NCBI GenBank assembly: GCA_964639165.1
Contig: CAZXCH010000001.1
Location: forward strand, 1-34,969
Direction: 5' to 3'
Origin: an uncultured Candidatus Saccharibacteria bacterium
Lineage (GTDB): Bacteria > Patescibacteriota > Minisyncoccia > UBA6257 > 2-01-FULL-56-20
Length of the DNA: 34,969 bases
Shown here: positions 2 through 20,128 of the stretch, one piece after another
Position numbering within the stretch: the stretch's first letter is position 1
Layout of the letters: every line of letters starts with the position of its first letter
Program-made: the position numbers and the translations under genes
The notes under the pieces: generated by a model
Seen by the model: the letters and a program-made list of their open reading frames with translations, nothing else
Databases searched by the model: none
What the model was told of the DNA's origin: nothing

Positions 2-208
2 ACATCGTGCGTAACAACCAACAGATGCCCCTCAACCGAAAACAGCGATGGCACTCCGCTTTATAATTGGACCGCGCCCGGATCGATGGAGGGAGCCGGC
101 AACGGACAAAACATCACGCTTACCTATTCCATCCCGGGAACGTATTCGGTAAGCGTGATCGCCTCCACTGATAATTCGCAATCAAGCTGCCAGATCCACG
201 TACAATGA
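2..208 (+). CDS. 3' end of an upstream gene (partial, start outside window) with a PKD/Ig-like beta-sandwich C-terminus
   Basis: The frame is open from the window edge to TGA 206-208; it is absent from the ORF track because it has no start. ...NWTAPGSMEGAGNGQNITLTYSIPGTYSVSVIASTDN... resembles a PKD repeat. The stop overlaps the next start (ATGA 205-208). Confidence 0.5.
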   Translation, partial: TSCVTTNRCPSTENSDGTPLYNWTAPGSMEGAGNGQNITLTYSIPGTYSVSVIASTDNSQSSCQIHVQ

Positions 209-2229
209 AGTTGAAAAATCCTCTAAAAAATGGGTTGAGGAAGGAAGTAGTCATTACGGCTATTCTCGGTTTCTTTTTAATATTTTTTGGATTAACACGC
301 CCGGCACGTGCTGATGGCTTATTTGATATAAGCGGCTTCACGTCTGGAGCTATTTCGATGTTGATGGAGGGCATCACCTATATTTTGGCTTGGATTTTTG
401 GCGCCTTCATTTCCATAGAAACATGGCTCATTAGTATCGTTTTAAATATCAACGCTAATATACTGCAAACGAGCTTTGTTCAGACCGGATTTTCAATATC
501 GCTTTCCGTTGCAAACCTCGCATTCGTACTGGGGATCATCGTAATTGCGCTTGCAACGATATTGCGAATAGAAAACTACAGTATTAAAAAAATGCTCTGG
601 AAGCTGGTGATTATGGCGATCCTTGTTAATTTCGGCCTCGTAATCATTGCGCCAATCTTTGCGTTCGCCAATGCAACCACGCAGTATTTTCTCAATTCTT
701 TCCCTGGCCAGGGAGGATTCAGTAGTTTTGCGTCAACGATGGCGGGGAAATTCAATCCACAGGCAATGTTTGCCGCAGTCTCGAATCCAACGCCGGGGTC
801 GGGGAATAGTACCGGGCCTTTTGGTCTTTCAGCATCGGGAGTCGGCCAGTCAATAAGCGCGCAGATGGTTCCGATCTTTAGCATGCTTTTTACTGTCGTC
901 GACTTTTTGCTTATTATTTGTGTGCTTGGGGCATTCATTGTTATGTTAATAATAAGATACATCTATATCGCAATTCTCGCGATTCTATTGCCGTTTGCTT
1001 GGGCGTCATGGGTATTCCCAAGTTTCAGCTCGCTGTATTCCAAATGGTGGAATAAATTCCTCCAGTGGACGTTTTTCGCGCCCATCTTTATGTTTTTTCT
1101 TTACTTGGCGCTCTCCACGATTGGAGGAGCCAACAACGCGGATGCCTTTAATTTAACCAATTATACACAGGGGAGTGGAGGCTCTCTCTTTTCCCCTATC
1201 ACAGATTTTTTCGGTGGCATCATAACCCCGATCCTTACCAACTTCCTTCAAGAAGTGGTGCTTGGTGGCATGATTATCGGCGGCATGATCGCGGCAGATA
1301 GCATGGGCGTCAAGTTTGCAGGCACGGTCGTTAACTTCGCGAAAAAACAAGCGGGGACTTTTGCTACTAATCGATGGAATTCGGCCAGACGGCGCGCAAG
1401 TGAAAAGTTGAGATCGATGGGGAAGAAAACCGATGAGCAGGGGAACACCTCTACAACACTCCAAAGAGTGGGCTCAAAGTTCCAGGGATCGCCCTTACCT
1501 TTTGCGAAAACCGTCGGTTCTAAAATTGCAAGTGCAGGCTCCCCGGAGGTGGGCAAAGAAGACCGCATAAAGGATGTTGATAAATATGTAGAAGAAAACC
1601 TAAAGGGGTTGACTAACGACGGCATGCTCGCGCGTGCGAACGGCATTAATGCCATGACAAGCGACCGCGAACTTGCTGCAATTGGGCAGGAATTGTCCAG
1701 GAGAAACCTTACTGCGCCGCCGACCGCTACGACCCCCGGACTTGATCCAACAAAACTGGAAGCCCTTATTAAGGGAGCTGAAAACATGGGCAGCGTCCAG
1801 TCTCTTCTTAACAGCCGTCCAGAGCTAGCGGCACAAACAACTGCTGCTACTCCGAGGATGCTTCCTACCGGGGTTATGGAAACGACTGCACAAGCTATCG
1901 AAAGAGCGATTACAGATGCAGTGAAGAAAATAAAAATCGCTGACATCCCAACGCTTGAAGCTCGATCATTAGGTGACCCCTCTAAACCAGCTGGTACTTC
2001 TCCAACTCCCGAACAGGAGAATATAGCTATAAACATGTCCATTCCACAACTGAACAAGCTGGCTACCGAAGGAGGACCTGGAGCGGCGGCGGCGTATAAA
2101 GATACTATTGAAAGAATGGTGACTGCTGCTACCGCTCCGGGCGCACCCGCACTTCCTCCAGCCACGCTCGCAAAATTAAATAATCTATATACGTACGTGA
2201 GCGCATCGCCTGCGTGGCAGTATATATAA
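205..2229 (+). CDS. polytopic membrane protein, candidate TrbL/VirB6-like T4SS channel component
   Basis: 674 aa with a signal-like N-terminus and about 8 or more hydrophobic helices over the first ~400 aa, then a soluble A/P/T-rich C-terminal region. Topology and position beside the PrgI and VirB4 genes fit the call. There is no motif-level proof. Confidence 0.5.
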   Translation: MKLKNPLKNGLRKEVVITAILGFFLIFFGLTRPARADGLFDISGFTSGAISMLMEGITYILAWIFGAFISIETWLISIVLNINANILQTSFVQTGFSISLSVANLAFVLGIIVIALATILRIENYSIKKMLWKLVIMAILVNFGLVIIAPIFAFANATTQYFLNSFPGQGGFSSFASTMAGKFNPQAMFAAVSNPTPGSGNSTGPFGLSASGVGQSISAQMVPIFSMLFTVVDFLLIICVLGAFIVMLIIRYIYIAILAILLPFAWASWVFPSFSSLYSKWWNKFLQWTFFAPIFMFFLYLALSTIGGANNADAFNLTNYTQGSGGSLFSPITDFFGGIITPILTNFLQEVVLGGMIIGGMIAADSMGVKFAGTVVNFAKKQAGTFATNRWNSARRRASEKLRSMGKKTDEQGNTSTTLQRVGSKFQGSPLPFAKTVGSKIASAGSPEVGKEDRIKDVDKYVEENLKGLTNDGMLARANGINAMTSDRELAAIGQELSRRNLTAPPTATTPGLDPTKLEALIKGAENMGSVQSLLNSRPELAAQTTAATPRMLPTGVMETTAQAIERAITDAVKKIKIADIPTLEARSLGDPSKPAGTSPTPEQENIAINMSIPQLNKLATEGGPGAAAAYKDTIERMVTAATAPGAPALPPATLAKLNNLYTYVSASPAWQYI

Positions 2230-2236
2230 CAAACAC

Positions 2237-3220
2237 ATGGATTCTAAGACGTTTCTCTTAAAAATTAAGGATACTCCGCCCTCCATTCGTACATGGTTTG
2301 CTTCCGGGGAGGTTTCCCTGATGGTTCGCACAATCAACCAGCACTTTAATATACAAAAAGGAAGCGAAACCGTCCTCCCTAAATTATTGGCTCGCTTGGA
2401 AGTGCGTGATATAGCCCCCGATTATTTCGCCGGAGAACTCTCAGAAGAGTTGAAATTGGATCGGGATAAAGCATTGGGTATTTCCACGGAAGTTAAACGA
2501 ACTATCCTAACTCCACTAACAAAAGAATTCTTGGCTTTTGGTGTTGACATCTCCCTTTTAGATAAATTCCAGATCCCCACTATAAAAGACTTAAGTCCGA
2601 GTGCGACCATGGCAATAGTGAACGGTCCGAAAATTATCCAGGATGTGAGCATCACTCCTCCAAAACCTGTGGCGCTCCCCGCTGTCGGTTGGTCAAAAAT
2701 GCCGGCCTCCACATTCTCATCCACGCCCACACCGGTGCCTCCCGTCACGCCGCGACCCATAACCCCGCTCGCGCCGATAGCTCCGGCAGCCCCGGCTGAA
2801 CCTGCCCCCATAATCCTTCACGAGGATACGGCGTTCAAAGCGGTAGAAAAAAATGCGGGCTTTACGCTTGCCCGGCCGGGAGGAGGAGCGGATATGCAAC
2901 TCGGCGGACATGGAAGCTCCTCCGTCCCAACTCCACCGCGGCCGGCGGTTTTGGAATTCGGCGGGGCAAAACCAGCGGCTCCAATGCCGAGCGCAGTTCA
3001 CAATACCGGGCAAAGTGTCCCGCTCTCCGCGATGCCAACGGCCAATACCGGCCCGAGGAGCGTAAGTCAGATTACGCCCGTCGCCGCTATACCGACGCCG
3101 CCGAAACCGCCCGCACCTCCGATGTCGCCAGCGCCGTCTAACATTGTTCCAATGCCGCAACCGCCGCAACCGCCTTCTGCTCCACAATCCGCCAAGCCGA
3201 TCGTTAAGGACTTTCTTTAG
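2237..3220 (+). CDS. hypothetical protein: ~130-aa N-terminal domain followed by a ~200-aa Pro/Ala-rich extended region
   Basis: Long ORF starting 8 nt after the upstream stop. Pro-rich low complexity (PPKPPAPPMSPAPS, PQPPQPP). No recognisable domain. Confidence 0.6.
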   Translation: MDSKTFLLKIKDTPPSIRTWFASGEVSLMVRTINQHFNIQKGSETVLPKLLARLEVRDIAPDYFAGELSEELKLDRDKALGISTEVKRTILTPLTKEFLAFGVDISLLDKFQIPTIKDLSPSATMAIVNGPKIIQDVSITPPKPVALPAVGWSKMPASTFSSTPTPVPPVTPRPITPLAPIAPAAPAEPAPIILHEDTAFKAVEKNAGFTLARPGGGADMQLGGHGSSSVPTPPRPAVLEFGGAKPAAPMPSAVHNTGQSVPLSAMPTANTGPRSVSQITPVAAIPTPPKPPAPPMSPAPSNIVPMPQPPQPPSAPQSAKPIVKDFL

Positions 3221-3287
3221 CAATCGCGCGGCGCAATAGCTTATTCGCAGTGGCAAATCCCGGCTGCTGGCTTTACAATGATGAGAT

Positions 3288-3908
3288 ATGCAGTACCAAG
3301 TTCCACAATTCATTGATACCGAGGATAATCTGGTTGGGCCGTTCTCCCTTCGGCAGTTTGCTTATGTCGGCGCCGCGGCGATCGTGAGCGCCATATGCTA
3401 TTTCTTCCTACAAACATGGCTGTTCGTCATTGTGGCAATCATCGCGATTGGCGGCTCGCTCGCCCTCGCCTTTCTTAAGATCAACGGCCGGCCGCTCATC
3501 AAGGTCATCACTTCCGCTGCTAATTTTTATTGGAAGCCTCAACTTTACGTCTGGAAAGCCGATCATCCGATCATGACGCAGCAAAAGCAGAGGCCTGCTG
3601 CCGCGATGCGCGCGTTGCCTCCGATCGAAGAGAAAAAAGTCGGCCGGGTGGCGACGCATGGCGGCAACAATACCGCATCCGCGCCTCCGGATGTCACCGA
3701 ACGCGAGCTTCCGCCGGTTCAAACCATCGCAAGGGGAGATTCGTTGCACAAGAGCTGGGAAAATCTCCAGACCGGTACGCCGGACGGCGGTGAAACAAAG
3801 AAGACTTCCGACCGGCAATTTCTGGAAAAGAAGATGGCCGAGCGGTATGAGATATTCCAGCGGCTTGGCGGCGATCGCGCGGCGGCGCGGCGCGTGGATT
3901 ATCGCTAA
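3288..3908 (+). CDS. PrgI-family (VirB3-like) small membrane protein
   Basis: The N-terminus MQYQVPQFIDTEDNLVGPFSLRQFAYVGAAAIV followed by two TM helices is the characteristic PrgI-family signature. It lies upstream of VirB4, as in Gram-positive T4SS loci. TACAAT sits at 3274-3279, 8 nt before the ATG. Confidence 0.65.
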   Translation: MQYQVPQFIDTEDNLVGPFSLRQFAYVGAAAIVSAICYFFLQTWLFVIVAIIAIGGSLALAFLKINGRPLIKVITSAANFYWKPQLYVWKADHPIMTQQKQRPAAAMRALPPIEEKKVGRVATHGGNNTASAPPDVTERELPPVQTIARGDSLHKSWENLQTGTPDGGETKKTSDRQFLEKKMAERYEIFQRLGGDRAAARRVDYR

Positions 3909-3929
3909 GAAATATGGGAAAATAAGAAT

Positions 3930-4625
3930 ATGGCTCCAATACAACAACAGGATGCAGGAAATTCCGTCGATCTCGTGGAGGTCAAGGAGATCAAAGAGAA
4001 GACTGTCGTCGTGAAAGACGGAAGCCTTCGTCAAGTTATCATGGTGGGGGGCGTCAATTTTTCCCTCAAATCCGATAACGAGCAGAACATCATCACGCAG
4101 GGATATCAGACCTTTTTAAATAGCATCGATTTCCCTCTGCAGATAGTCATCCATTCCCGGAAGGTGAACATCGAAAAATATTTGGAGAGCCTTATGGCAA
4201 GAAAAGAAGTTGAGCCGTCACCCATCCTTCAAAACCAAATAGAGGAGTATACGAAGTTTGTGAAAGGATTCGTCGAGCAGAACGCGATCATGGAAAAGAT
4301 ATTCCTGGTGGTCGTCTCGTTCTATCCGCTCTCCGGACTTCCTGGCGTCAGCAAGAGCGTTTCCGGATTTCTCCCGTTCCTCGGAAAGAAAAAAACGCCC
4401 GCCGGTGCGGGGCCCGCTTCCGCGCAACGCGCCGAAGAAGAGGAAAGAATGTTCAAAGAAAACCTCGCGCAGCTGAATCAGCGGGTCACCCAGGTGACGA
4501 CGGGATTGCTGAATATCGGGCTGGAGGCAACCGTCCTTGACGACGAACAGCTCGTTGAGCTCTTCTATAATTTCTATAATCCTCAAACGATCGAGCGCGC
4601 CACGGCGCCCGATTCCCGAAAATAA
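3930..4625 (+). CDS. hypothetical soluble protein in the T4SS-like operon
   Basis: 231-aa ORF packed between the PrgI-like and VirB4-like genes. Any resemblance to N-terminal regions of VirB4/TraC-type proteins is weak and unverified. Confidence 0.55.
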   Translation: MAPIQQQDAGNSVDLVEVKEIKEKTVVVKDGSLRQVIMVGGVNFSLKSDNEQNIITQGYQTFLNSIDFPLQIVIHSRKVNIEKYLESLMARKEVEPSPILQNQIEEYTKFVKGFVEQNAIMEKIFLVVVSFYPLSGLPGVSKSVSGFLPFLGKKKTPAGAGPASAQRAEEEERMFKENLAQLNQRVTQVTTGLLNIGLEATVLDDEQLVELFYNFYNPQTIERATAPDSRK

Positions 4626-4635
4626 CAATACGACC

Positions 4636-6372
4636 ATGCCAGAAGGCCAAGAAAAAAACACTTTTGATAACGTAAAAAAGATCATCGCGCCGGCGGGCGC
4701 GCAAGTGTTTCCCAACTACCTGAAGATCGGCGACAAATTGGCGAAGACCTTCTTTGTGTTCTCCTACCCCCGCTATCTTTCTACCGGGTGGTTCGAGCCG
4801 CTCATCAACCTGCCAAACCTCTTCGACGTCTCTATCTTCATCAACCCGGTCGATACCGGGAGCGCGCTCAAGAAACTCCGCAAGAAAGCGGGGCAACTGG
4901 AATCACAAATGAACGAAGAGCAGGAAAAAGGGCTCGTAAGAAACCCCGTGCTCGAGACTGCCATCAATGACGTTGAAGGTTTGCGCGATTCGCTCCAACA
5001 ATCCGAGGAAAAACTTTTTGATACCGGCGTCTATATTACGATCTACGCGGACACCCTTGAGGAACTTGCGCGGCTTGAGAGCAAGTTGGTCACCATGATG
5101 GAAGCGAAGTTGATCTATCTCAAACCCGCTCTTTTTGAACAGCTTGAGGGACTTTCCTCCGTTCTGCCCATCAACGACGACAAACTGCAGATATACTCCC
5201 CGATGAACACGAGCCCTATCTCGTCATTCTTCCCGTTCGTCTCGGAGGATCTTTCGTCAAACCAGGGGATTATGTACGGCATCAACCTTCACAACAACAA
5301 TCTGGTCATCTTCGACCGCTTCTCTCTTGAGAACGCGAACGAGGTGGTGTTTGCAAAGTCCGGTTCCGGCAAATCGTACACAACCAAGCTTGAGATCCTT
5401 CGCGCGCTCATGGCGGGCATCGATATGGTGATCGTCATCGATCCGGAGAATGAATACGGCCGCCTTGCGGAAACGTTCGCGGGAAGTATGTTCAACATCT
5501 CGCTTTCCTCGCATGAACACATCAATCCGTTCGATATCCCGCCGATACCTGAGGGCGAGACCCCTTCCGACGTTTTGCGTTCGCACATCGTGAACCTTGC
5601 GAGTCTGCTCAAGTTGATGCTTGGCAAACTTACCCCGGAGGAGGACTCCATTTTGGACCGCGCGATCACTGAAACGTATGCCTCGCGCGAGATCGTCGCC
5701 GATACGGACTTCACCGGCAAAGAGCCTCCTTTATTGGGAGACCTTGAAACGATCCTGCGGAATCTTGAAGGGGGAAATGAGCTCGCCGAGAAGCTCTATA
5801 AATACACAAAGGGTAGCTTTGCCGGTTTTTTGAACCAGCCCACCAACATTGACGTCAACAACCGCCTGATCATCTTCTCCATCCGCGACCTCGAAGAAGA
5901 GCTCCGCCCGCTCGGCATGTTCGTCGTGCTCAACTTCATCTGGAATCTCATCCGCGCGAAGCTCGCCAAACGCCTGCTCTTCATCGACGAGGCGTGGATC
6001 ATGATGAAGAACGACGACAGCGCGACGTTCCTGTTCGGCCTCGTCAAGCGCGCGCGCAAATATTATTTGGGCGTCACCACGATCACGCAAGACGTGGAAG
6101 ACTTTTTGCGGTCGCCGTACGGGCGCCCGATCGTCACCAACTCTTCTCTTCAGCTGCTCTTGAAGCAGGCGCCCGCCACGATTGATATTCTCGCGAAAGC
6201 ATTTGACCTCACCGACGCGGAGAAGAATTTCCTTCTTGGCGCCGCCGTCGGCACCGGCATCTTCTTTGCCGGCAAGCGACACGTCGCCATCCAGATCGTC
6301 CCGTCATATTACGAAGACCAGATCATCACCACGAATCCCGAACAGCTTCTCGAGGAGAAAAAACAGGCCTAA
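4636..6372 (+). CDS. virB4: VirB4/TraC/PrgJ-like type IV secretion ATPase
   Basis: Walker A is FAKSGSGKSYTTK and Walker B is RLLFIDEAW. The N-terminal pattern YPRYLSTGWFEPLINL...DVSIFINP is typical of VirB4 homologues. The start was moved from the ORF-track position 4537 to ATG 4636, 11 nt after the upstream stop. Confidence 0.8.
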   Translation: MPEGQEKNTFDNVKKIIAPAGAQVFPNYLKIGDKLAKTFFVFSYPRYLSTGWFEPLINLPNLFDVSIFINPVDTGSALKKLRKKAGQLESQMNEEQEKGLVRNPVLETAINDVEGLRDSLQQSEEKLFDTGVYITIYADTLEELARLESKLVTMMEAKLIYLKPALFEQLEGLSSVLPINDDKLQIYSPMNTSPISSFFPFVSEDLSSNQGIMYGINLHNNNLVIFDRFSLENANEVVFAKSGSGKSYTTKLEILRALMAGIDMVIVIDPENEYGRLAETFAGSMFNISLSSHEHINPFDIPPIPEGETPSDVLRSHIVNLASLLKLMLGKLTPEEDSILDRAITETYASREIVADTDFTGKEPPLLGDLETILRNLEGGNELAEKLYKYTKGSFAGFLNQPTNIDVNNRLIIFSIRDLEEELRPLGMFVVLNFIWNLIRAKLAKRLLFIDEAWIMMKNDDSATFLFGLVKRARKYYLGVTTITQDVEDFLRSPYGRPIVTNSSLQLLLKQAPATIDILAKAFDLTDAEKNFLLGAAVGTGIFFAGKRHVAIQIVPSYYEDQIITTNPEQLLEEKKQA

Positions 6373-6381
6373 CCCATTCCT

Positions 6382-7245
6382 ATGGCCGAAAGACCGGAAC
6401 CAAAGATATCCACATCGGAGGCAGTCCTCATCGGGATGTTTTTGTTGATCCTCGACGCGATCGATCTAATCCCCATCGCAGGCGACCTTACGGATGTCGC
6501 AGGCGCCCCATTGATCCTCTACTACTATACAAAGCATATCAACGGCGTTGCTTATATTGTTTCCGAGATTTTGGATCTCATCCCTATTGTTCAAGAGATT
6601 CCCTCGCGGAGCATCGTTTGGTGGGGGACGGTCGCATTTGATAGATTTGCGCCCGCAAAAGTTGAAGAGGCGGTGGAAAAACTTGGCGAAGAGGCCGAAG
6701 GCAAAGAGGGAGGCGGGGAATTGGAAGGCGAAGGAGGACTTGGCGCGGAAACATCAGAAGGCGGCCAACGCGGCGCTTCTTCGGCAGAAAGGGTTGAAGA
6801 GGAAGGAGTGCGAGGCAGCGGGACAAAGGAAGGGGTTCAGGATGAAGAGTCAAGACAAAACACCGAATCCGGAACCACCGAGAAAGAGGCGGCGGATATG
6901 AGAGAAGGCGGAGAACCGGGTGGCGAAAGCGAAAGTCCGGAAGAAAATGGGGGCCAAAAGAACGGTAACGGTGAAGATATTTCAGCCACGGAGAGCGAAG
7001 AGGAGCCAATGGCCGTGACCGAAGGCCAGCTCTTCACTCAGTCGGGCGATGAAAGTTCCTCCTCCACCGAAGAGAAAGGAGAAGATGAGGAGGCTGTAGA
7101 AGAAAAGGCTCGTGCCGCGCCACCGAGACACTCTGGGAATACTGTTAGCATTGATAGTTCCAAGAAATGGCAACGAAACCAGCGACGTAAAAAAACCAAA
7201 CCAAGCACGGCCGACGTTATCCCCCCGGAAGAGATGGCCGCATAG
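6382..7245 (+). CDS. membrane-anchored protein with a ~190-aa Glu/Gly-rich polyacidic tail and a basic C-terminus
   Basis: Hydrophobic N-terminal ~100 aa, then EEAEGKEGGGELEGEGGLGAE... low complexity, ending in KKWQRNQRRKKTK. It starts 10 nt after the VirB4 stop. Confidence 0.55.
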   Translation: MAERPEPKISTSEAVLIGMFLLILDAIDLIPIAGDLTDVAGAPLILYYYTKHINGVAYIVSEILDLIPIVQEIPSRSIVWWGTVAFDRFAPAKVEEAVEKLGEEAEGKEGGGELEGEGGLGAETSEGGQRGASSAERVEEEGVRGSGTKEGVQDEESRQNTESGTTEKEAADMREGGEPGGESESPEENGGQKNGNGEDISATESEEEPMAVTEGQLFTQSGDESSSSTEEKGEDEEAVEEKARAAPPRHSGNTVSIDSSKKWQRNQRRKKTKPSTADVIPPEEMAA

Positions 7246-7284
7246 CGCTTCCCCGATTTGAATTTGCTATACTAAAGGAAAGAT

Positions 7285-8001
7285 ATGTCCGCTCGTTCTA
7301 CTATCCGAAAAGTGGTCTTCCTGGGGCTTTTGGTTTTTTCTGCCGTTTTCTTCTTTTCGTTCTGCGGGGCCCATGCCCAAACCGCATCGTCGCCCAAGTT
7401 TTTGCTGACCTGGAAGGCATCCAATAGTTATATCCCTTCGTTCTATGAGGGAAAAGCACTCCCGTCCTCGGGAGGCACGAAGATCACTGCATCGCTTGAG
7501 CTGATCTCAAACGGAAAGCTCGTCAATCTTAGTAACCAAAATATTTATTGGTATGAGGATGAAATTTTGGTAGGAGGTGGGGCCGGGGTGCAGCAAGTGA
7601 CATTTACTCCATTTGGAACGCCGCCCAGCACCCTTGTGTTAAGCGTGCAGCTCCCCCAATATAGTGGCGGCTATCTCACCCACACCGTCAACATTCCTTT
7701 CGTAACCCCTTTGGCGGTGATTGACGCCCCGTATCCAAACCAAGAATTTTCCACAAATCTTCTTACGCTACAAGGGCTACCGTTCTTTTTCAATGCAACA
7801 TCAACGAACAACATTTCGTTCACGTGGTCGGTCAACGGCCAAACCGGAGCGAACGCGGAAAATCCTCAAGTGGCCGAGATCAGTCTCCCACCAGGAACCC
7901 CGGGCGGAACGAATTTTGGCGTCTCGCTTTCTATCAGCAATTTCCAAGGGGCCACGGTCGCAAACACGAATCAGGAATTCACATTCCAAAATCAATTATG
8001 A
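7285..8001 (+). CDS. secreted beta-rich protein of unknown function
   Basis: Signal peptide MSARSTIRKVVFLGLLVFSAVFFFSFCGAHAQ. An AGGAAAG motif lies upstream. The stop overlaps the next start (ATGA at 7998-8001). Confidence 0.6.
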   Translation: MSARSTIRKVVFLGLLVFSAVFFFSFCGAHAQTASSPKFLLTWKASNSYIPSFYEGKALPSSGGTKITASLELISNGKLVNLSNQNIYWYEDEILVGGGAGVQQVTFTPFGTPPSTLVLSVQLPQYSGGYLTHTVNIPFVTPLAVIDAPYPNQEFSTNLLTLQGLPFFFNATSTNNISFTWSVNGQTGANAENPQVAEISLPPGTPGGTNFGVSLSISNFQGATVANTNQEFTFQNQL

Positions 8002-8666
8002 TGAACTTTCTTTTTTTGGTGGCACATGCGGTTACCATCAGCACCGCCATCCCCGGCACCAATCCGAATAGCACGAGCTCCTCGCCGGGGGCGTTCGTGG
8101 CGAACTTCTATCAATTCGCATTGATGATCGGAGGAATCCTTGCCTTGGGTGCCATCGTGTACGGAGGGGTCAGATATGTGGCTTCCGCAGGCAATCCTTC
8201 CGCCCAAAGCGATGGGAAGGAATGGATCTGGGGGGCATTGATCGGACTCCTGCTCCTTGCCGGAGCCTATCTGGTGCTGAACGTCGTGAATCCCCAGCTC
8301 GTGAACCTCAATCTGCCTACCCTGAATCAGATATCGGCGGTGAATAATACGACGGTGGCGCCGGGAAATTATACAACCGCCTCAACGTGCCAGGCTACTT
8401 CCAATGGAGGTTCGACCGGAACATGTCAACCCGACGCAAGCGGTAAAAATCAAAACTGCTGTAATCTTAACGGACTGGGGATCTGCACTACCGACTCGTG
8501 CTCGGATCTGTCAAATTTACAATGTCGGGCCACTTCTAATGGAGGCACAACCGGATCTTGCCCAAATCTTAATGGGGCGGCCCAAAATTGTTGTTATTCT
8601 AGCATCGATGATAGTGCGATCTGCGTAACCGAGACGTGCGCCGATTTTGCCGCCGAGGCCCAATAA
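7998..8666 (+). CDS. VirB2/TrbC-like T4SS pilin with two C-terminal six-cysteine modules
   Basis: Hydrophobic leader, then two TM helices (FYQFALMIGGILALGAIVYGGVRYV and WIWGALIGLLLLAGAYLVLNVV) joined by a short polar loop, which is the pilin hairpin topology. The C-terminus carries a tandem C-x11-C-x9/10-CC-x7/9-C-x4-C repeat. The start was trimmed to ATG 7998, coupled to the upstream stop. Confidence 0.6.
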   Translation: MMNFLFLVAHAVTISTAIPGTNPNSTSSSPGAFVANFYQFALMIGGILALGAIVYGGVRYVASAGNPSAQSDGKEWIWGALIGLLLLAGAYLVLNVVNPQLVNLNLPTLNQISAVNNTTVAPGNYTTASTCQATSNGGSTGTCQPDASGKNQNCCNLNGLGICTTDSCSDLSNLQCRATSNGGTTGSCPNLNGAAQNCCYSSIDDSAICVTETCADFAAEAQ

Positions 8667-8682
8667 TATATATAATAGATTC

Positions 8683-10026
8683 ATGAAACGCTATCTCTAC
8701 ATCATCATCGGCATCGTGGTTGCGGCAGTGATCGTAATTTTGGTTCTTTTCTTGATCAAAAATCGTGCGGCTGGACCTTCTCTCGTTACGTCGGGCACGG
8801 GGTCTCTGCCCGCCGCCAACACGCAGGGCATTGGCGGTTCCTCGTCGACGGGGAGCGAAAGTAGTGGTAGCGGGACACTTGGCCTTGCGGTCATAACGGG
8901 GAGCAGTACGGCCGCCGCGAGCGGACAGATGACCCCGCAGAAGTTTGGTGTCTTATCGAACAATCCGGTCCTTACTTATTTCGTCGATCCACACAACAAC
9001 ATAACCGCCATTGAGCCGACGGGCGAGATATTCACTATCTCAAACGGACAATCCACTATAGTGAACTCTTCAACGATCAACGACATCATTTCTGCAAGTT
9101 TCTCGTATGACGGTAAAAAAATACTCGTAAACTATGGCGCCTCTTCTAACCCGCAATCGGGGGTGTTCGATCTTGCGGCAAACACGTGGACATCGCTTCC
9201 GCAAGGCATGACGTCTCCTCAATGGTCGCCCGTCAGCAACTACCAGATCGCATATCTCGTGACTACCAACAACGGAAAGCTCGCGCTCGCGACTATAGAC
9301 GCCTCAAATCTTAAAGCAGCCCCTTCGGTCCTTCTTTCACTCAATGCGAACGACATCGCCCTCCAGTGGCCGACAAAAAGCGAATTTATCCTCTCGGACA
9401 GGCCGACGTCAAAGAGCCTTGGTTCGGTGTGGGCATTCAATTCTCTAACGGGGACGTTCTCCCCGGTTCTCTACGAGGTTTCTGGCGCAGAAAGCACCTG
9501 GAGTAATAATGTCGCGTTCCCCTATGGACTTCTATTCTCCACCGCAAACGGAGGGAATCGCTTGCAGTTGCAGGCGCTTTCAGGACCTCTTCCCATTGAG
9601 TCGCTTACTTTTGCCACGCTTCCGTCAAAATGCACATTTAATACCGAGCTGATGCCCATCGCCACATCCACGACTGCCACTTCTTCAACAAGCACAACAA
9701 CGTCAACGGCCACTTCATCCACAAAGAAGGCAACGACACCCGCGAAGGCTGCTCCAACCTCTACCCCGTACCTTGCACTTTATTGCGGCATCCCGCGAAG
9801 TTCAAGCGGGTTCTCTTCTGCGCATCTTCCCGATGATTATAATATGATGGCTCTCTTTACTTCGGACAATCTCTATAAGGTGAACACTGAGACGGGAGTG
9901 ATACAACCGCTTTGGAACTCCCCAACGCAGAACATGGACGTCTCGGATCTGAAATTCTTCAATAACGCGCTGTTCTTCGTCAACCGCTACGATAATAAAT
10001 TGTACGGACTCACATTCGCTAATTAA
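8683..10026 (+). CDS. N-terminally anchored surface protein with a beta-propeller-like (TolB-like) body and a Thr/Ser-rich insert
   Basis: TM anchor YLYIIIGIVVAAVIVILVLFLI, then an S/G linker and repeated FSYDGKKIL / WSP-type strands. A low-complexity stretch reads ATSTTATSSTSTTTSTATSS. TATAAT at 8671-8676 lies exactly 6 nt before the ATG. Confidence 0.55.
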   Translation: MKRYLYIIIGIVVAAVIVILVLFLIKNRAAGPSLVTSGTGSLPAANTQGIGGSSSTGSESSGSGTLGLAVITGSSTAAASGQMTPQKFGVLSNNPVLTYFVDPHNNITAIEPTGEIFTISNGQSTIVNSSTINDIISASFSYDGKKILVNYGASSNPQSGVFDLAANTWTSLPQGMTSPQWSPVSNYQIAYLVTTNNGKLALATIDASNLKAAPSVLLSLNANDIALQWPTKSEFILSDRPTSKSLGSVWAFNSLTGTFSPVLYEVSGAESTWSNNVAFPYGLLFSTANGGNRLQLQALSGPLPIESLTFATLPSKCTFNTELMPIATSTTATSSTSTTTSTATSSTKKATTPAKAAPTSTPYLALYCGIPRSSSGFSSAHLPDDYNMMALFTSDNLYKVNTETGVIQPLWNSPTQNMDVSDLKFFNNALFFVNRYDNKLYGLTFAN

Positions 10027-10040
10027 TAAGGCCTTGGAAT

Positions 10041-10075
10041 AAAAAACACCCGCTTCATCGTCGGGTGTTTTTTAT
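10041..10075. terminator. bidirectional intrinsic terminator between convergent genes
   Basis: AAAAAACACCCG-cttcatcgt-CGGGTGTTTTTT, with an A-run and a T-run flanking the GC stem. Confidence 0.75.
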
Positions 10076-10509
10076 TCCAATATCGGCTTGATGATGACAT
10101 ATCGTTCCTTTCCCTCGCCCGCACTTTCGGTCTTCACCTCCGGGTGGACAGCAAGTTCCATATGCACCAATCTGCGTTCGTATGAGTTCATCGCCGGAAG
10201 CGCGACTTCCTTCTTTGTGACGGCCGCCTTCTTCGCCGCAGCGCGGGCGAGTTCCGCGATCAGTCGCTCGCGGTCGTGCCGGTAGTTATTGATGTCAAGA
10301 AATATCGCTTCGGTCTGATTTTTTTTGGCCACCATCTGGAGGATATGGTTCACCGCATCCACGATTGCCGGGAGGTTTTCCTTCACCATCTCTTGGTCCT
10401 CGTAGATAAAAACCGATCCCCTCCTCTCGTCTATTTTGATCTCCAAACGATAATCGGTGAACCCGATGAGGTCTAATGTTTTTTTAATGTATGATTCCCA
10501 GTTGTCCAT
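10072..10509 (-). CDS. jag: Jag/KhpB-type KH + R3H RNA-binding protein
   Basis: R3H motif region (ERRLVHMELAVHPEVKTESAGEGKERYVIIKP). It occupies the conserved position downstream of yidC. Confidence 0.75.
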   Translation of the reverse strand: MDNWESYIKKTLDLIGFTDYRLEIKIDERRGSVFIYEDQEMVKENLPAIVDAVNHILQMVAKKNQTEAIFLDINNYRHDRERLIAELARAAAKKAAVTKKEVALPAMNSYERRLVHMELAVHPEVKTESAGEGKERYVIIKPILE

Positions 10510-10557
10510 GCGTTCCCGTAACTATTCCATGTTTTCCCAATAAAATCAAGCTTGATA

Positions 10558-10616
10558 GGCAAAATATCCTCTTCGCCGAACGGTCATCTGCCCGGAGGCG
10601 AAGAGGATATTTTGCC
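10558..10616 (-). repeat. perfect 20-bp hairpin with a 19-nt loop (conserved-loop hairpin, copy 1)
   Basis: 10558-10577 is the exact reverse complement of 10597-10616. The loop on the sense (minus) strand is TCCGGGCAGATGACCGTTC. The hairpin lies 10 nt downstream of the yidC stop. Confidence 0.9.
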
Positions 10617-13343: not shown

Positions 13344-13476
13344 TCCCGTCGCTATCCACACACACAACGCCGCGTAGAGCTTATTAGTATTGAATAATAA
13401 AAAATTATCCCCAGAAATATTCATTACTAATAACAATAATCATAAAAAGTATTTAAATATAAACTATAATTAAGAG
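13344..13476. other. putative oriC / DNA-unwinding region in the dnaA-dnaN spacer
   Basis: DnaA-box-like sites CTATCCACA (13352-13360) and TTATCCCCA (13405-13413). About 95 bp is strongly AT-rich (13381-13476). The gene context is the canonical origin arrangement. Confidence 0.5.
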
Positions 13477-18104: not shown

Positions 18105-19781
18105 ATGCTCGACGCACCTCAAAAAGACCTTACCGAGAAGCTCGCAAAACTGCGGCGTGACGGGGAAGAGCGTGCCGCCGAGCGGCTCGCCGAGAAGCTG
18201 GGGCTTTCGTATGTGGACCTGGCGAAGATCCCCGTATCACTCGATGCGGTAAGGATATTGCCGGAGACCGAGGCGAAGGACGCGAAGGTGGCCGCCATCG
18301 AGCTGAAAGCGAAAAAAGTAGCGCTCGCGGCAATCAACCCCGAGCTTCCCGCCACAAAAAAAGCGCTCGAAGAACTCGTCGGAAAAAAGTATGAGGTGAA
18401 AGTCGTTGTGGTTTCCCCGTCAAGTATGGAGGCCGCATGGCGCTTTTATCAATTCGTGAAACCGGAAACGGGAAATATCACGGGAAAGGTGGAGATACCT
18501 CAAGAGCGCCTCGACGCATTAAAGGCAAAACTGGTGACGATCGATGCGGTCCATAAGGAGATCGGTGCGCTCCCGCTCGCGAATGTTTCTCCGGTAGCGT
18601 TGATTGAGATCATCCTGGCGGGCGCGATGGGCTTGCGTGCGTCGGATATTCACACCGAGGCGGAAGAGAAGAAAGCGAAGATCCGTTTCCGCATCGACGG
18701 GTTGCTGCACGACATGTTCGACGAGATCCCGCTCGATGCGTATCACACGTTCGTGTCGCGCATCAAACTTCTTTCCGAGATGAAGTTGAACGTTCGCGAC
18801 GCGGCGCAGGACGGCCGCTTCACGATCGGGCTTGGGCAAAAAGATATCGAGATGCGCGTATCCGTGATCCCGGCGGAGTTCGGCGAAACGATCGTCATGA
18901 GAATTCTTGACCCGTCCGCGACGATGGTGACACTGCCGCAGCTTGGGCTTCGTGCGGACAACCTCGCTCTTGTTATGAAGAAAATATCCCAACCGAACGG
19001 GTTGATATTGAACACCGGCCCGACGGGTTCCGGAAAAACAACGACACTCTACGCATTCCTGCGCACCATGAACGATCCGACGATGAAGATCATCACCCTG
19101 GAGGATCCGATCGAGTATCGCATTGATGGTATTGAACAGACACAGATCGACGAGGAGGCGGGATATACCTTTGGCAACGGCTTGCGGGCCATCGTGCGGC
19201 AGGATCCGGATGTGATCCTTGTCGGCGAGGTACGTGACCTTGAGACGGCGGACATCGCGCTCGAAGCGGCGCTCACGGGGCACTTGGTGTTATCCACGCT
19301 TCACACGAACGATGCCGTGGGAGCCGTGCCGCGTTTGATCAATCTTGGCGTGAAGGCGGTGAGCATCGGGCCGGCGCTTTCGCTCGCGATAGCGCAACGT
19401 CTCGTGCGCGTGTTGTGCAAGGAGTGTAAAAAGGAGGCTCCGGTGGATGGACCGACAGCGGAGAAGATAACCAAACTCCTCGCCGCGCTGCCGGCGAAGG
19501 TGGATAAAAAAGTTTATGACGGCTATAAGATCTACGCGCCGGTGGGCTGCGAGAAATGCAATGGCATCGGATACAAAGGTCGCGTCGGTGTATTTGAGTT
19601 TTTAGAAGGCGGCCCGGATTTGGAGAAGACGATTTTGCGCGAGGCATCGGAGGTCTCGCTTCGCGAGGTTGCGCAGCGGCAGGAGATGGTCACTATGCAG
19701 CAGGACGGCATCCTGAAAGTACTCGAAGGGAAGACGACGTTTGATGAAGTGACGGGAGCCACCGGAGACTTGGTGTGGTAA
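18105..19781 (+). CDS. pilB: GspE/PilB-family type II secretion / type IV pilus assembly ATPase
   Basis: Walker A is GPTGSGKTTT, Walker B is ILVGEVRD and the His box is LSTLHTNDA. A tetracysteine motif reads CKEC...CEKC. The start was chosen at ATG 18105 rather than the ORF-track position 18072, based on promoter geometry. Confidence 0.85.
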   Translation: MLDAPQKDLTEKLAKLRRDGEERAAERLAEKLGLSYVDLAKIPVSLDAVRILPETEAKDAKVAAIELKAKKVALAAINPELPATKKALEELVGKKYEVKVVVVSPSSMEAAWRFYQFVKPETGNITGKVEIPQERLDALKAKLVTIDAVHKEIGALPLANVSPVALIEIILAGAMGLRASDIHTEAEEKKAKIRFRIDGLLHDMFDEIPLDAYHTFVSRIKLLSEMKLNVRDAAQDGRFTIGLGQKDIEMRVSVIPAEFGETIVMRILDPSATMVTLPQLGLRADNLALVMKKISQPNGLILNTGPTGSGKTTTLYAFLRTMNDPTMKIITLEDPIEYRIDGIEQTQIDEEAGYTFGNGLRAIVRQDPDVILVGEVRDLETADIALEAALTGHLVLSTLHTNDAVGAVPRLINLGVKAVSIGPALSLAIAQRLVRVLCKECKKEAPVDGPTAEKITKLLAALPAKVDKKVYDGYKIYAPVGCEKCNGIGYKGRVGVFEFLEGGPDLEKTILREASEVSLREVAQRQEMVTMQQDGILKVLEGKTTFDEVTGATGDLVW

Positions 19782-19847
19782 TAGTGTTTCGTATTCTCGG
19801 CTCCAAGCAGATGACCGTTCGCCGCGAATACGAAACACCATTACCAC
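19775..19847 (+). repeat. 26-bp hairpin (2 mismatches) with a 19-nt loop (conserved-loop hairpin, copy 2)
   Basis: 19775-19796 pairs with 19826-19847 with 1 mismatch, and 19798-19801 pairs with 19821-19824. The loop is TCCAAGCAGATGACCGTTC (19802-19820). The hairpin overlaps the pilB stop codon. Confidence 0.9.
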
Positions 19848-19878: not shown

Positions 19879-19907
19879 AAAAAAATAAGCGCGGACGCTT
19901 ATTTTTC
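19879..19907. terminator. bidirectional intrinsic terminator
   Basis: AAAAAAATAAGCG-cgga-CGCTTATTTTT, with 7 T on the minus strand and 5 T on the plus strand. Confidence 0.75.
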
Positions 19908-20128
19908 AAGATTGAAAGTAGTAAACTCAGACCTGGGGGCAATTCCTCGCGAAAGGATAATGATCTCTTCTATCTAATGATAAAAGAGGCTAGAATTACT
20001 CAAAGGATATAACCAGCCGGAACCGGTTAGTCCTGTAGTTTTTAGAAATAACTCCCGCCCCCAGATCTGAATCAGCTACTTTTAATGAACATCGGTTAAC
20101 TTGCCAGCAGCCCATATTTATTGAGCAC
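19879..20128 (-). ncRNA. candidate ~250-nt orphan transcript (structured sRNA or small-ORF mRNA)
   Basis: A minus-strand promoter at 20135-20163 and the terminator at 19879-19907 bracket a region with no conserved gene. Inside it, a 14-bp helix (13/14 paired) joins 19927-19940 to 20057-20070. Confidence 0.35.

Follow-up and report, generated by a model that had tools for sequence, protein, structure and literature searches.

A near-constant 19-nt loop at the apex of unrelated gene-ending palindromes in Paceibacteria

How do two hairpins whose stems have nothing in common come to carry almost the same 19-nt loop, each at the end of a different gene? This question is raised by a 34,969-nt stretch of DNA (the window, meaning the whole stretch that was analysed) from a genome of the Paceibacteria type (CPR/Patescibacteria). 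The window encodes a small YidC, rnpA, dnaA-dnaN at a switch in GC skew, a T4SS-like cluster, and pilB. The first hairpin (copy 1; 10558-10616, minus strand) lies in the yidC-jag spacer in the sense of yidC, starts 10 nt past the yidC stop codon, and reads GGCAAAATATCCTCTTCGCC TCCGGGCAGATGACCGTTC GGCGAAGAGGATATTTTGCC on the minus strand. Its two perfect 20-bp arms (10558-10577 and 10597-10616), which pair at 20 of 20 positions as originally predicted, enclose the loop TCCGGGCAGATGACCGTTC (10578-10596, minus strand) through TTCGCC/GGCGAA closing pairs. The second hairpin (copy 2; 19775-19847, plus strand) lies in the pilB 3' UTR and reads GTGGTAATAGTGTTTCGTATTCTCGGC TCCAAGCAGATGACCGTTC GCCGCGAATACGAAACACCATTACCAC on the plus strand. 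Its arms (19775-19801 and 19821-19847) proved to be 27 nt long with two mismatches, where a 26-bp stem had been predicted; the left arm takes in the last codon and the stop codon of pilB (TGG TAA), and the loop TCCAAGCAGATGACCGTTC (19802-19820, plus strand) is closed by CGGC/GCCG pairs. The loops are identical at 17 of 19 positions, with differences confined to loop positions 4-5, which confirms the original prediction of unrelated stems with near-identical loops. Copies 1 and 2 are the top two inverted repeats by length in the 35-kb window, both with 19 nt between the arms, and the loop pattern occurs twice in the window against a shuffled mean of 0.03, with at least two matches in none of 100 shuffles. 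On the sense strand, the folding energy is -45.6 kcal/mol for copy 1 (z = -9.1) and -41.2 kcal/mol for copy 2 (z = -5.6). The same hairpins are present in same-species metagenome contigs.

We found that the two hairpins are members of an interspersed, lineage-specific repeat family in Paceibacteria, here called module A. One genome per GTDB species was scanned for TCCNNGCAGATGACCGTTC, and every listed match (at least 113 stretches) was checked for flanking complementarity. Among the matches listed, 31 are flanked by inverted repeats of 9-34 bp of unrelated sequence, and all of these lie in 7 MAGs labelled Paceibacterota, Parcubacteria, Minisyncoccia, or 'uncultured bacterium'. Hairpin scanning added 2 variant copies, which brings the family to at least 33 copies beyond the window in these 7 MAGs, and the MAG MFD04780.bin.2.65 has at least 15. 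By comparison, about 75 listed matches elsewhere (Rhodobacteraceae, Clostridia, and other groups) have only 0-6 complementary flanking bases; these matches in other phyla are chance or coding matches. The search for the loop between inverted repeats, which had been proposed as a check, thus bore out the combination of a fixed loop and variable arms as a recurrent family. At module A loci, 80 hairpins have a stem of 12 bp or more, and in 24 of them the loop measures exactly 19 nt. The conserved core exceeds the loop and spans about 31 nt (yTTCGCC-TCCNNGCAGATGACCGTTC-GGCGAAr). In a gapless alignment of 36 copies, the loop is invariant except at positions 4-6 and, in the divergent copies of the relative L121, at a few dialect positions (14-16). 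A module A covariance model matches copy 1 with 74.9 bits and copy 2 with 70.5 bits, and in 0.8 Mb of unbiased relatives' DNA it gave 6 strong matches from only 4 sources, along with weaker dialects.

Module A appears to be confined to hairpins: when about 1 Mb of related DNA was searched under relaxed criteria, every copy lay in a hairpin, and the 5 loop matches in the viral contigs scanned were all stem-less and are attributed to chance. No RNA partner complementary to the loop was found in about 1 Mb of related DNA. Searching Rfam with the whole window at the gathering threshold returned tRNA only, E-value scans of both hairpins returned only generic miRNA and 3'-UTR hairpin models far below threshold, and nothing meaningful came from such scans of modules C, E, and F, which are described below. 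Literature searches on the loop string and on CPR palindrome or terminator repeats gave primer matches only and no description of the element. Module A therefore matches no described RNA family or published repeat that we found, as the original prediction had supposed, and what sets it apart from REP/BIME elements and template-switch hairpins is the combination of a conserved apex, a locally built stem, and a loop under selection.

What, then, do these hairpins do at the ends of genes? The consensus of 36 copies runs, in order, through an A-tract, a variable GC block, TTCGCC, the loop, GGCGAA, a variable block, and a T-tract. In 30 of 37 copies the 3' arm runs into a T-tract (at least 6 of 8), and in 26 of 37 there is an A-tract just ahead of the 5' arm, with the reverse polarity of the T- and A-tracts seen in just 3 and 1 copies. 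Gene orientation was counted around 37 copies with a codon-usage-model gene caller. In 21 of the 37, the stop codon of a co-oriented gene lies 16-31 nt ahead of the loop, i.e. the left arm begins at or over the stop codon; 3 of these 21 copies also abut a convergent gene. Five copies are antisense to both neighbours, and none of the 37 abuts only an antisense gene, so that the predicted orientation in the sense of the upstream gene held up. The hallmark of an intrinsic terminator, a GC hairpin with a U-tract past the stop codon, is found across the family, while about 20% of copies, copy 2 among them, have no T-tract of their own. Judged by this architecture, most module A hairpins look like intrinsic, mostly bidirectional, terminators, contrary to the earlier view of them as an alternative to terminators. 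Plain terminators of the same genomes share this build, for example the bidirectional terminator past jag in the window (10034-10080, both strands), a module-free hairpin with a 19-bp perfect stem and a 9-nt loop that pairs with the jag stop codon and the final two jag codons.

The orientation of the loop tracks the gene and not replication. Specifically, a replication-strand signal of the Chi or KOPS type was rejected: GC skew flips near dnaA, yet loop orientation follows the genes, and the relative L079 carries two oppositely oriented copies about 600 bp apart. A short ORF starting from the ATG in the loop was also discarded on inspection, its downstream portion being variable arm. The genes that end at module A hairpins are unrelated housekeeping genes (L27, RNR small subunit, P-type ATPase, PilB, response regulator, UvrA, GreA, TopA, DinB, pilin, dUTPase, M50 peptidase, and YidC), and no functional theme was found among them.

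The two window copies differ in how they fit this picture. Copy 1 has a marginal T-tract of 4 T within the stem end. The original prediction had argued that a terminator at this position, inside an operon, would cut off jag. Between the copy 1 hairpin and jag, just upstream of jag, we observed a promoter-like motif, CTTGATTTT-N-ATGGAATAGT (10521-10550, minus strand), that scores just under the threshold of a simple consensus scanner. The motif (CTTGATTTT...TATGGAATAGT) is kept in 37 of 67 relatives, hairpin-free and empty-spacer ones included. From this conservation we infer that it may act as a promoter; since relatives keep it whether or not they have the hairpin, jag need not share a transcript with yidC, and the operon objection to a terminator at copy 1 fails. 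Copy 2 has no T-tract, and a separate canonical bidirectional terminator (AAAAAATAAGCGCGGACGCTTATTTTTC; 19880-19907, both strands) follows 33 nt further on and would end both the pilB transcript and a minus-strand ncRNA. Copy 2 is thus a 3'-UTR hairpin and not the terminator itself.

Perfect stems of unrelated sequence had been taken, by implication, as evidence for a structure selected at the RNA level, and a covariance model with a test for compensatory stem changes had been proposed. Part of that expectation stood: in a 24-bp helix, 91% of positions are paired compared to 57% in shuffles, and both sides have changed in 23 of 24 pairs. The pairs themselves are DNA-like. Among stem pairs, 741 (96%) are Watson-Crick, 8 are G.U, 15 are A.C, and 10 are other mismatches, whereas an adjoining conserved structured RNA has 11 G.U in 61 pairs; the stems thus have no excess of G.U. 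At the yidC site, an indel is mirrored between the arms (GGCAAAATATCC-TCTTCGCC in the window versus GGCAAAAACAAAGACGCCG-TCTTCGTC in L121, with the 3' arm matching in each). Elsewhere, arms reach into or copy the final 8-12 nt of the coding sequence or the -35 region of jag, the centre of a C module in L144 has been overwritten to a perfect palindrome, and the centre is inverted between relatives with the same outer stem (L129 and L137 versus L182). The stems, and only the stems, therefore display the features of quasipalindromes made by template switching: perfect arms, mirrored changes, arm expansion, and spacer inversion. Published work gives arm homogenisation, arm expansion, and spacer inversion as hallmarks of template switching in replication (PMC8794818, PMC5941160, PMC8604942, PMC13100816). 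Together, the almost wholly Watson-Crick pairing, the mirrored indels, and the arms that copy coding ends show that the stems are templated at the DNA level, as local sequence that was palindromised there and not as the product of RNA-level compensatory selection. The sequence signature of template switching is present in the stems, and the mechanism would be that of the published work. An inverted duplication of the flank at insertion found partial support only, the empty alleles in L133, L136, L125, and L126 lacking both arms.

Constraint on the loop is a different matter. We compared five pairs of copies that are orthologous by descent, with shared stems and flanks (L033/L100, L036/L079, L077/L022, window/L079, and window/L150). 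Over these pairs, 7 of 95 loop positions have changed, a count that drops to 2 of 80 once the free positions 4-6 are set aside. Fourfold-degenerate sites, by comparison, diverge by 0.36-0.46 in the genome pairs for which they were measured, and the flanking DNA of the orthologous pairs, mostly coding, is 77-85% identical. The loop is thus more conserved than neighbouring coding DNA. Because homogenisation between copies is unable to slow divergence between species, this conservation means that the loop sequence is under purifying selection, as the original prediction had suggested. In a sister clade (L121, L130, L131, L134, and L182), loops drift as dialects that grade from module A into module B, and some dialects are specific to one genome, such as GATAGTTC/GATAATTC in L121.

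Are individual copies needed where they stand? Exact-protein look-up gave the syntenic region of 6 relatives and a YidC-based metagenome scan that of 80 relatives, and three orthologous sites proved highly variable among relatives at 85-94% protein identity. The yidC-jag spacer is empty (10-39 nt) in L133, L138/139, L127, L125, and L126, and holds a small plain hairpin in L128, module A in the window, L079, and L121, dialects of A in L124, L135, and L132 (inverted), and other centres in further relatives. At the 3' end of jag, where the window has the plain terminator at 10034-10080, relatives bear either plain terminators with unrelated GC blocks or modules A, B, C, D, or F. The 3' end of pilB carries module A in the window, L150, L121, and L107 (the last from another MAG), deletion remnants in L130 and L182, other centres in L122 and L155, a plain hairpin in L123, and nothing in L136, L142, L143, and L124-126. 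Individual copies are therefore dispensable, relatives having nothing, a plain terminator, or another module at the same sites.

These other modules share the architecture of module A. At least five were observed, with recurrent centres on unrelated outer stems: module B (TCGTGATAAGAATAATTC) with its variant B' (TAGATATAAGAATAAC), module C (about 28-45 nt, GGAACGGGCTCACCCTTCGGGATTGTTCC), module D (TAGCGAGCAGACTCGAC), module E (56-63 nt, with two inner hairpins), and module F (about 32 nt). Hairpins with A, C, or D at the yidC site have the outer stem CAAAATAYC in common. For module F, an empty and a filled site can be paired, namely ATCCCCTTTC-AGAA-GAAAGGGGAT in L138 versus ATCCCTTTC-TCTGTT[F]AACAGA-GAAAGGGAT in L142. 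Such a pair was seen for module F only, and simple insertion into a pre-existing loop was set aside as a general account. In their turnover, the modules resemble small repeat units set at the tips of terminator palindromes. The original prediction had held that a fixed loop on varying arms sets these hairpins apart from repeat elements; at least five sister modules that are gained, lost, and swapped at orthologous sites speak against that distinction.

Which explanation accounts for a selected loop on a DNA-built stem that turns over so fast? The reading that we tentatively prefer, and hold a little short of probable, is that a constant, sense-oriented, single-stranded 19-mer on many mRNA 3' hairpins is a putative platform on which one trans-acting factor docks to influence termination or the fate of the 3' end. 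The unit is a core of about 31 nt in which a short GC clamp (yTTCGCC/GGCGAAr) closes the 19-nt loop TCCNNGCAGATGACCGTTC at the apex of long gene-ending palindromes. The whole palindrome, which starts at or over the stop codon, would act as an intrinsic, mostly bidirectional, terminator or as a 3'-UTR hairpin. Template switching would build the site-specific outer arms and keep them perfect; it would homogenise the arms, lengthen them at their outer ends so that they run into the stop codon or an adjacent promoter, and now and then invert the spacer. Purifying selection holds the loop, in the same sense as the gene whose end the hairpin marks, and the transcribed hairpin would display the single-stranded 19-mer to the factor, most likely a protein acting on mRNA 3' ends. 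The putative effect of this factor would be on termination efficiency or on 3'-end decay or processing, across many unrelated housekeeping transcripts. Meanwhile, the module spreads and is replaced like a small repeat element, with at least five other modules in the same niche. A 19-nt loop is atypical of efficient intrinsic terminators. The five copies antisense to both neighbours, the inverted ortholog in L132, and the copies with no T-tract of their own also speak against the docking reading. Since relatives with 85-94% protein identity have lost copies, let them decay, or exchanged them for other modules, any benefit per gene must be small.

Much of this turnover can also be read without a benefit to the host. 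Module A might be a purely selfish miniature palindrome of the REP/MITE type, a foldback of about 31 nt (6-bp inverted ends and a 19-nt centre) that is copied into terminator apices, the only places where a compact genome could safely take it in, either by a transposase or through template switching from one hairpin to another; the copying machinery would need the loop, and the host would gain just a longer stem. We consider this rather unlikely, even though it explains the turnover and the many module families better than docking does. At least six module families (A-F), with short inverted ends of their own, occupy the same apical position, which under the docking reading would need several factors and fits selfish repeats better. 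Empty, plain, or differently occupied orthologous sites, the outer stem shared by A, C, and D hairpins at the yidC site, the empty/filled pair of module F, the genome-specific dialects such as that of L121, the missing functional theme among carrier genes, and stems without a G.U signal all agree with such a selfish module. What it leaves unexplained is the conservation of the loop at each locus: in old orthologous copies the loop has changed far less than fourfold sites and less than coding DNA, which is not expected of a dead or selfish insert. Moreover, neither the window nor the DNA between the paired copies of L035 yielded a transposase or recombinase (only HicAB, L10, L7/L12, and housekeeping genes), no direct target-site duplication is visible at any copy and no parent element came to light in the DNA examined, although the 6-bp clamp could serve as the TIR of a MITE, and the arms are continuous with the core, without residual loop residues.

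The sense bias of the loop would arise equally from a DNA process on an exposed non-template strand, and the loop could be a signal that is read in DNA: as a single-stranded hairpin or a cruciform that an HUH endonuclease, a relaxase, or a recombinase would nick or bind, as a nucleoid or gyrase-type site at the ends of transcription units, or as an uptake sequence tolerated only in terminator loops. The perfect Watson-Crick palindromes of 17-34 bp are capable of forming cruciforms, type IV pilus and T4SS-like genes are conserved in the clade, an invariant loop on a variable stem resembles rolling-circle origin hairpins, and dialects that differ by lineage resemble those of the uptake sequences of Neisseriaceae. 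We nevertheless regard a DNA-level signal as improbable, because all copies lie in hairpins and none in coding DNA, at about 1 per tens of kb and thus far below the density of known uptake sequences, because orientation tracks the abutting gene and not replication, because no Rep, relaxase, or recombinase gene stands beside any copy examined, and because the viral contigs hold no hairpin-flanked matches. Finally, these might be ordinary terminators with coincidentally similar loops, or an overlooked RNA family or ribozyme. The hairpins do have terminator architecture, part of the loop (CAGAUGA...CGAA) superficially resembles a hammerhead core, and GGCAGAUGAC presumably occurs in E. coli 4.5S RNA. 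The hammerhead likeness leaves no room for stem I, has the wrong base at core position 4, and has no Rfam hammerhead match, and the 4.5S likeness has no Rfam SRP match. With a chance expectation of 0.03 in the window, over 30 copies with flanking stems in a single clade but no such copy among the roughly 75 listed chance matches elsewhere, and Rfam matches that are all generic hairpins far below threshold, chance or a known RNA family is effectively refuted.

CPR/Patescibacteria have tiny genomes and almost no described non-coding biology. Our findings show that terminators in Paceibacteria are unusually long, perfect palindromes, probably shaped by DNA template switching, that host families of fast-turnover apical modules. 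In at least one such module, purifying selection has preserved a single-stranded sequence of 19 nt between species, on housekeeping transcripts that are otherwise unrelated. Should a factor read the loop, it would amount to a genome-wide layer of 3'-end control in an uncultured phylum; if the modules are selfish, they would represent a new type of repeat, in which the apex is conserved and the stem is built from local sequence. As a bolder speculation, which we think unlikely, Paceibacteria may carry a 'terminator-loop code' of interchangeable apical modules A-F on mRNA 3' hairpins, each with its own co-evolving trans-acting factor, which would explain the dialects, or else a new kind of mobile element, free of any transposase, that propagates by template switching into hairpin apices and so seeds new terminators. 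There is also a caution in these stems, namely that hundreds of 'compensatory' base-pair changes are here no evidence of selection at the RNA level.

Several known systems share one side of this element. REP, BIME, and REPIN elements of Enterobacteria and Pseudomonas are, like module A, short palindromic repeats in intergenic 3' regions with many copies and several families per genome; copies of REP/BIME elements and of module A are individually dispensable, and some REPs have been co-opted for mRNA 3' stabilisation or protein binding. A REP, however, has a conserved stem and a 5' GTAG-type tetranucleotide recognised by the RAYT transposase, whereas in module A only the loop and 3-6 closing pairs are conserved, the arms beyond these pairs are unrelated, and no flanking GTAG-like tetranucleotide is present. 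No RAYT (Y1 transposase) gene was found in the window or near the copies checked, and module A, unlike a REP, is nested in a terminator palindrome. Integron attC sites, with outer R''/R' boxes (RYYYAAC ... GTTRRRY) around a variable centre, have the opposite layout. With intrinsic bidirectional terminators, module A shares an A-tract, a GC-rich stem, and a T-tract straight after stop codons; the loops of such terminators are 3-8 arbitrary nucleotides, whereas that of module A is a conserved 19-mer on perfect stems of 17-34 bp that reach into coding sequence. The stems resemble template-switch hairpins (Monttinen and Loytynoja, 2022, PMC8794818; Lavi et al., 2018, PMC5941160), which likewise have perfect arms, one-step multi-base 'compensatory' changes, arm expansion, and spacer inversion. 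Template switching accounts for the stems only and not for the recurrence and constancy of the same 19-mer at unrelated loci.

An invariant loop on differing stems is also seen in the origin hairpins of rolling-circle Rep proteins and relaxases, such as the nonanucleotide loop of geminiviruses and circoviruses. These occur once per replicon beside a Rep gene, whereas module A has dozens of chromosomal copies at gene ends with no Rep gene found nearby. The uptake sequences of Neisseria (DUS) and Haemophilus (USS) have lineage dialects, an association with terminators, and conservation beyond neutral in common with module A; they form stems as inverted pairs, at about 1 per kb and in coding DNA too, whereas module A is single, found in loops only, and about 20-50 times rarer. 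A DNA uptake sequence was accordingly rejected for its low density (6 strong matches in 0.8 Mb of unbiased relatives' DNA) and its lack of coding copies. Iron-responsive elements, bacterial SECIS elements, and the histone 3' stem-loop have short, imperfect, wobble-bearing stems and a known reader, in contrast to the long DNA-level palindromes of module A and its carrier genes without a common function. In their possible mode of action, with a free stem and a loop that is read by a factor on many mRNAs, they are nonetheless the closest match to module A.

Beyond module A, the repeat with a conserved 19-nt loop at the apex of gene-end terminator hairpins, at least five additional apical modules (B/B', C, D, E, and F) of 16-63 nt were found in the stretches from relatives that we compared with the window (L121-L206). 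These modules recur at gene ends, where they are carried on long, perfect, and unrelated stems, for example in L137 (6652-6781, 10702-10798, 10852-10925, and 11392-11488), L133 (4408-4527 and 4591-4706), and L131 (2658-2738 and 3217-3288). Module E contains two inner hairpins and thereby forms a T-shaped structure. Rfam scans, which covered C, E, and F, returned no match. We also observed hairpins caught in the middle of decay or remodelling. At the jag 3' end of L144, the centre of a C module has turned into a perfect palindrome, while at the pilB 3' end the left arm is the sole remnant of the hairpin in L130 and L152, and only the stem base is left in L182, the centre having been deleted. 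The yidC-jag spacer of L150 holds a half-eroded F-type hairpin.

In this clade, the stop codon and as many as 12 nt of the coding sequence before it are regularly drawn into the terminator stem, which can reach 39-40 bp; examples are window 10034-10080 and the jag 3' ends of relatives L129, L134, and L137. Such long stems pairing into coding ends suggest that these genomes tolerate very long perfect palindromes. In L035, a further genome stretch, two module A copies in opposite orientations enclose an interval (5201-6017) that encodes a HicA/HicB-like toxin-antitoxin and rplJ-rplL, and no transposase was found between them.

Immediately upstream of jag, a conserved promoter-like motif, CTTGATTTT...TATGGAATAGT, is located on the minus strand (window 10521-10550). 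Because this motif is kept in 37 out of 67 relatives with or without a preceding hairpin, jag appears to be transcribed independently. On the strand opposite to pilB, the pilB-ruvB interval contains a structured RNA candidate of approximately 165 nt (window ~19910-20075, minus strand), with a promoter-like site (TTGACA-17-TAACAT, 20163-20135) and a terminator (19907-19880) on the same strand. The candidate is conserved in relatives L121, L123, L124, and L126 and shows eight compensatory pairs as well as numerous G.U pairs. It had no Rfam match, and its identification as a tRNA or tmRNA was rejected.

A likely oriC is marked by a switch in the sign of the GC skew (across window 10-14 kb) close to dnaA and by AT-rich hairpins in the dnaA-dnaN interval (13381-13472); L134, L137, L182, and L191 carry an orthologous hairpin whose 33-nt loop is conserved. 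Finally, a T4SS-like gene cluster (window 205-10026; L121-L126 11300-20700, in conserved synteny) encodes PrgI, a VirB4/TraG-type ATPase, a T4SS pilin, and several proteins without a Pfam match. Since it adjoins jag-yidC-rnpA-dnaA with synteny conserved in all relatives, the cluster seems to belong to the core of the lineage and not to a mobile island.
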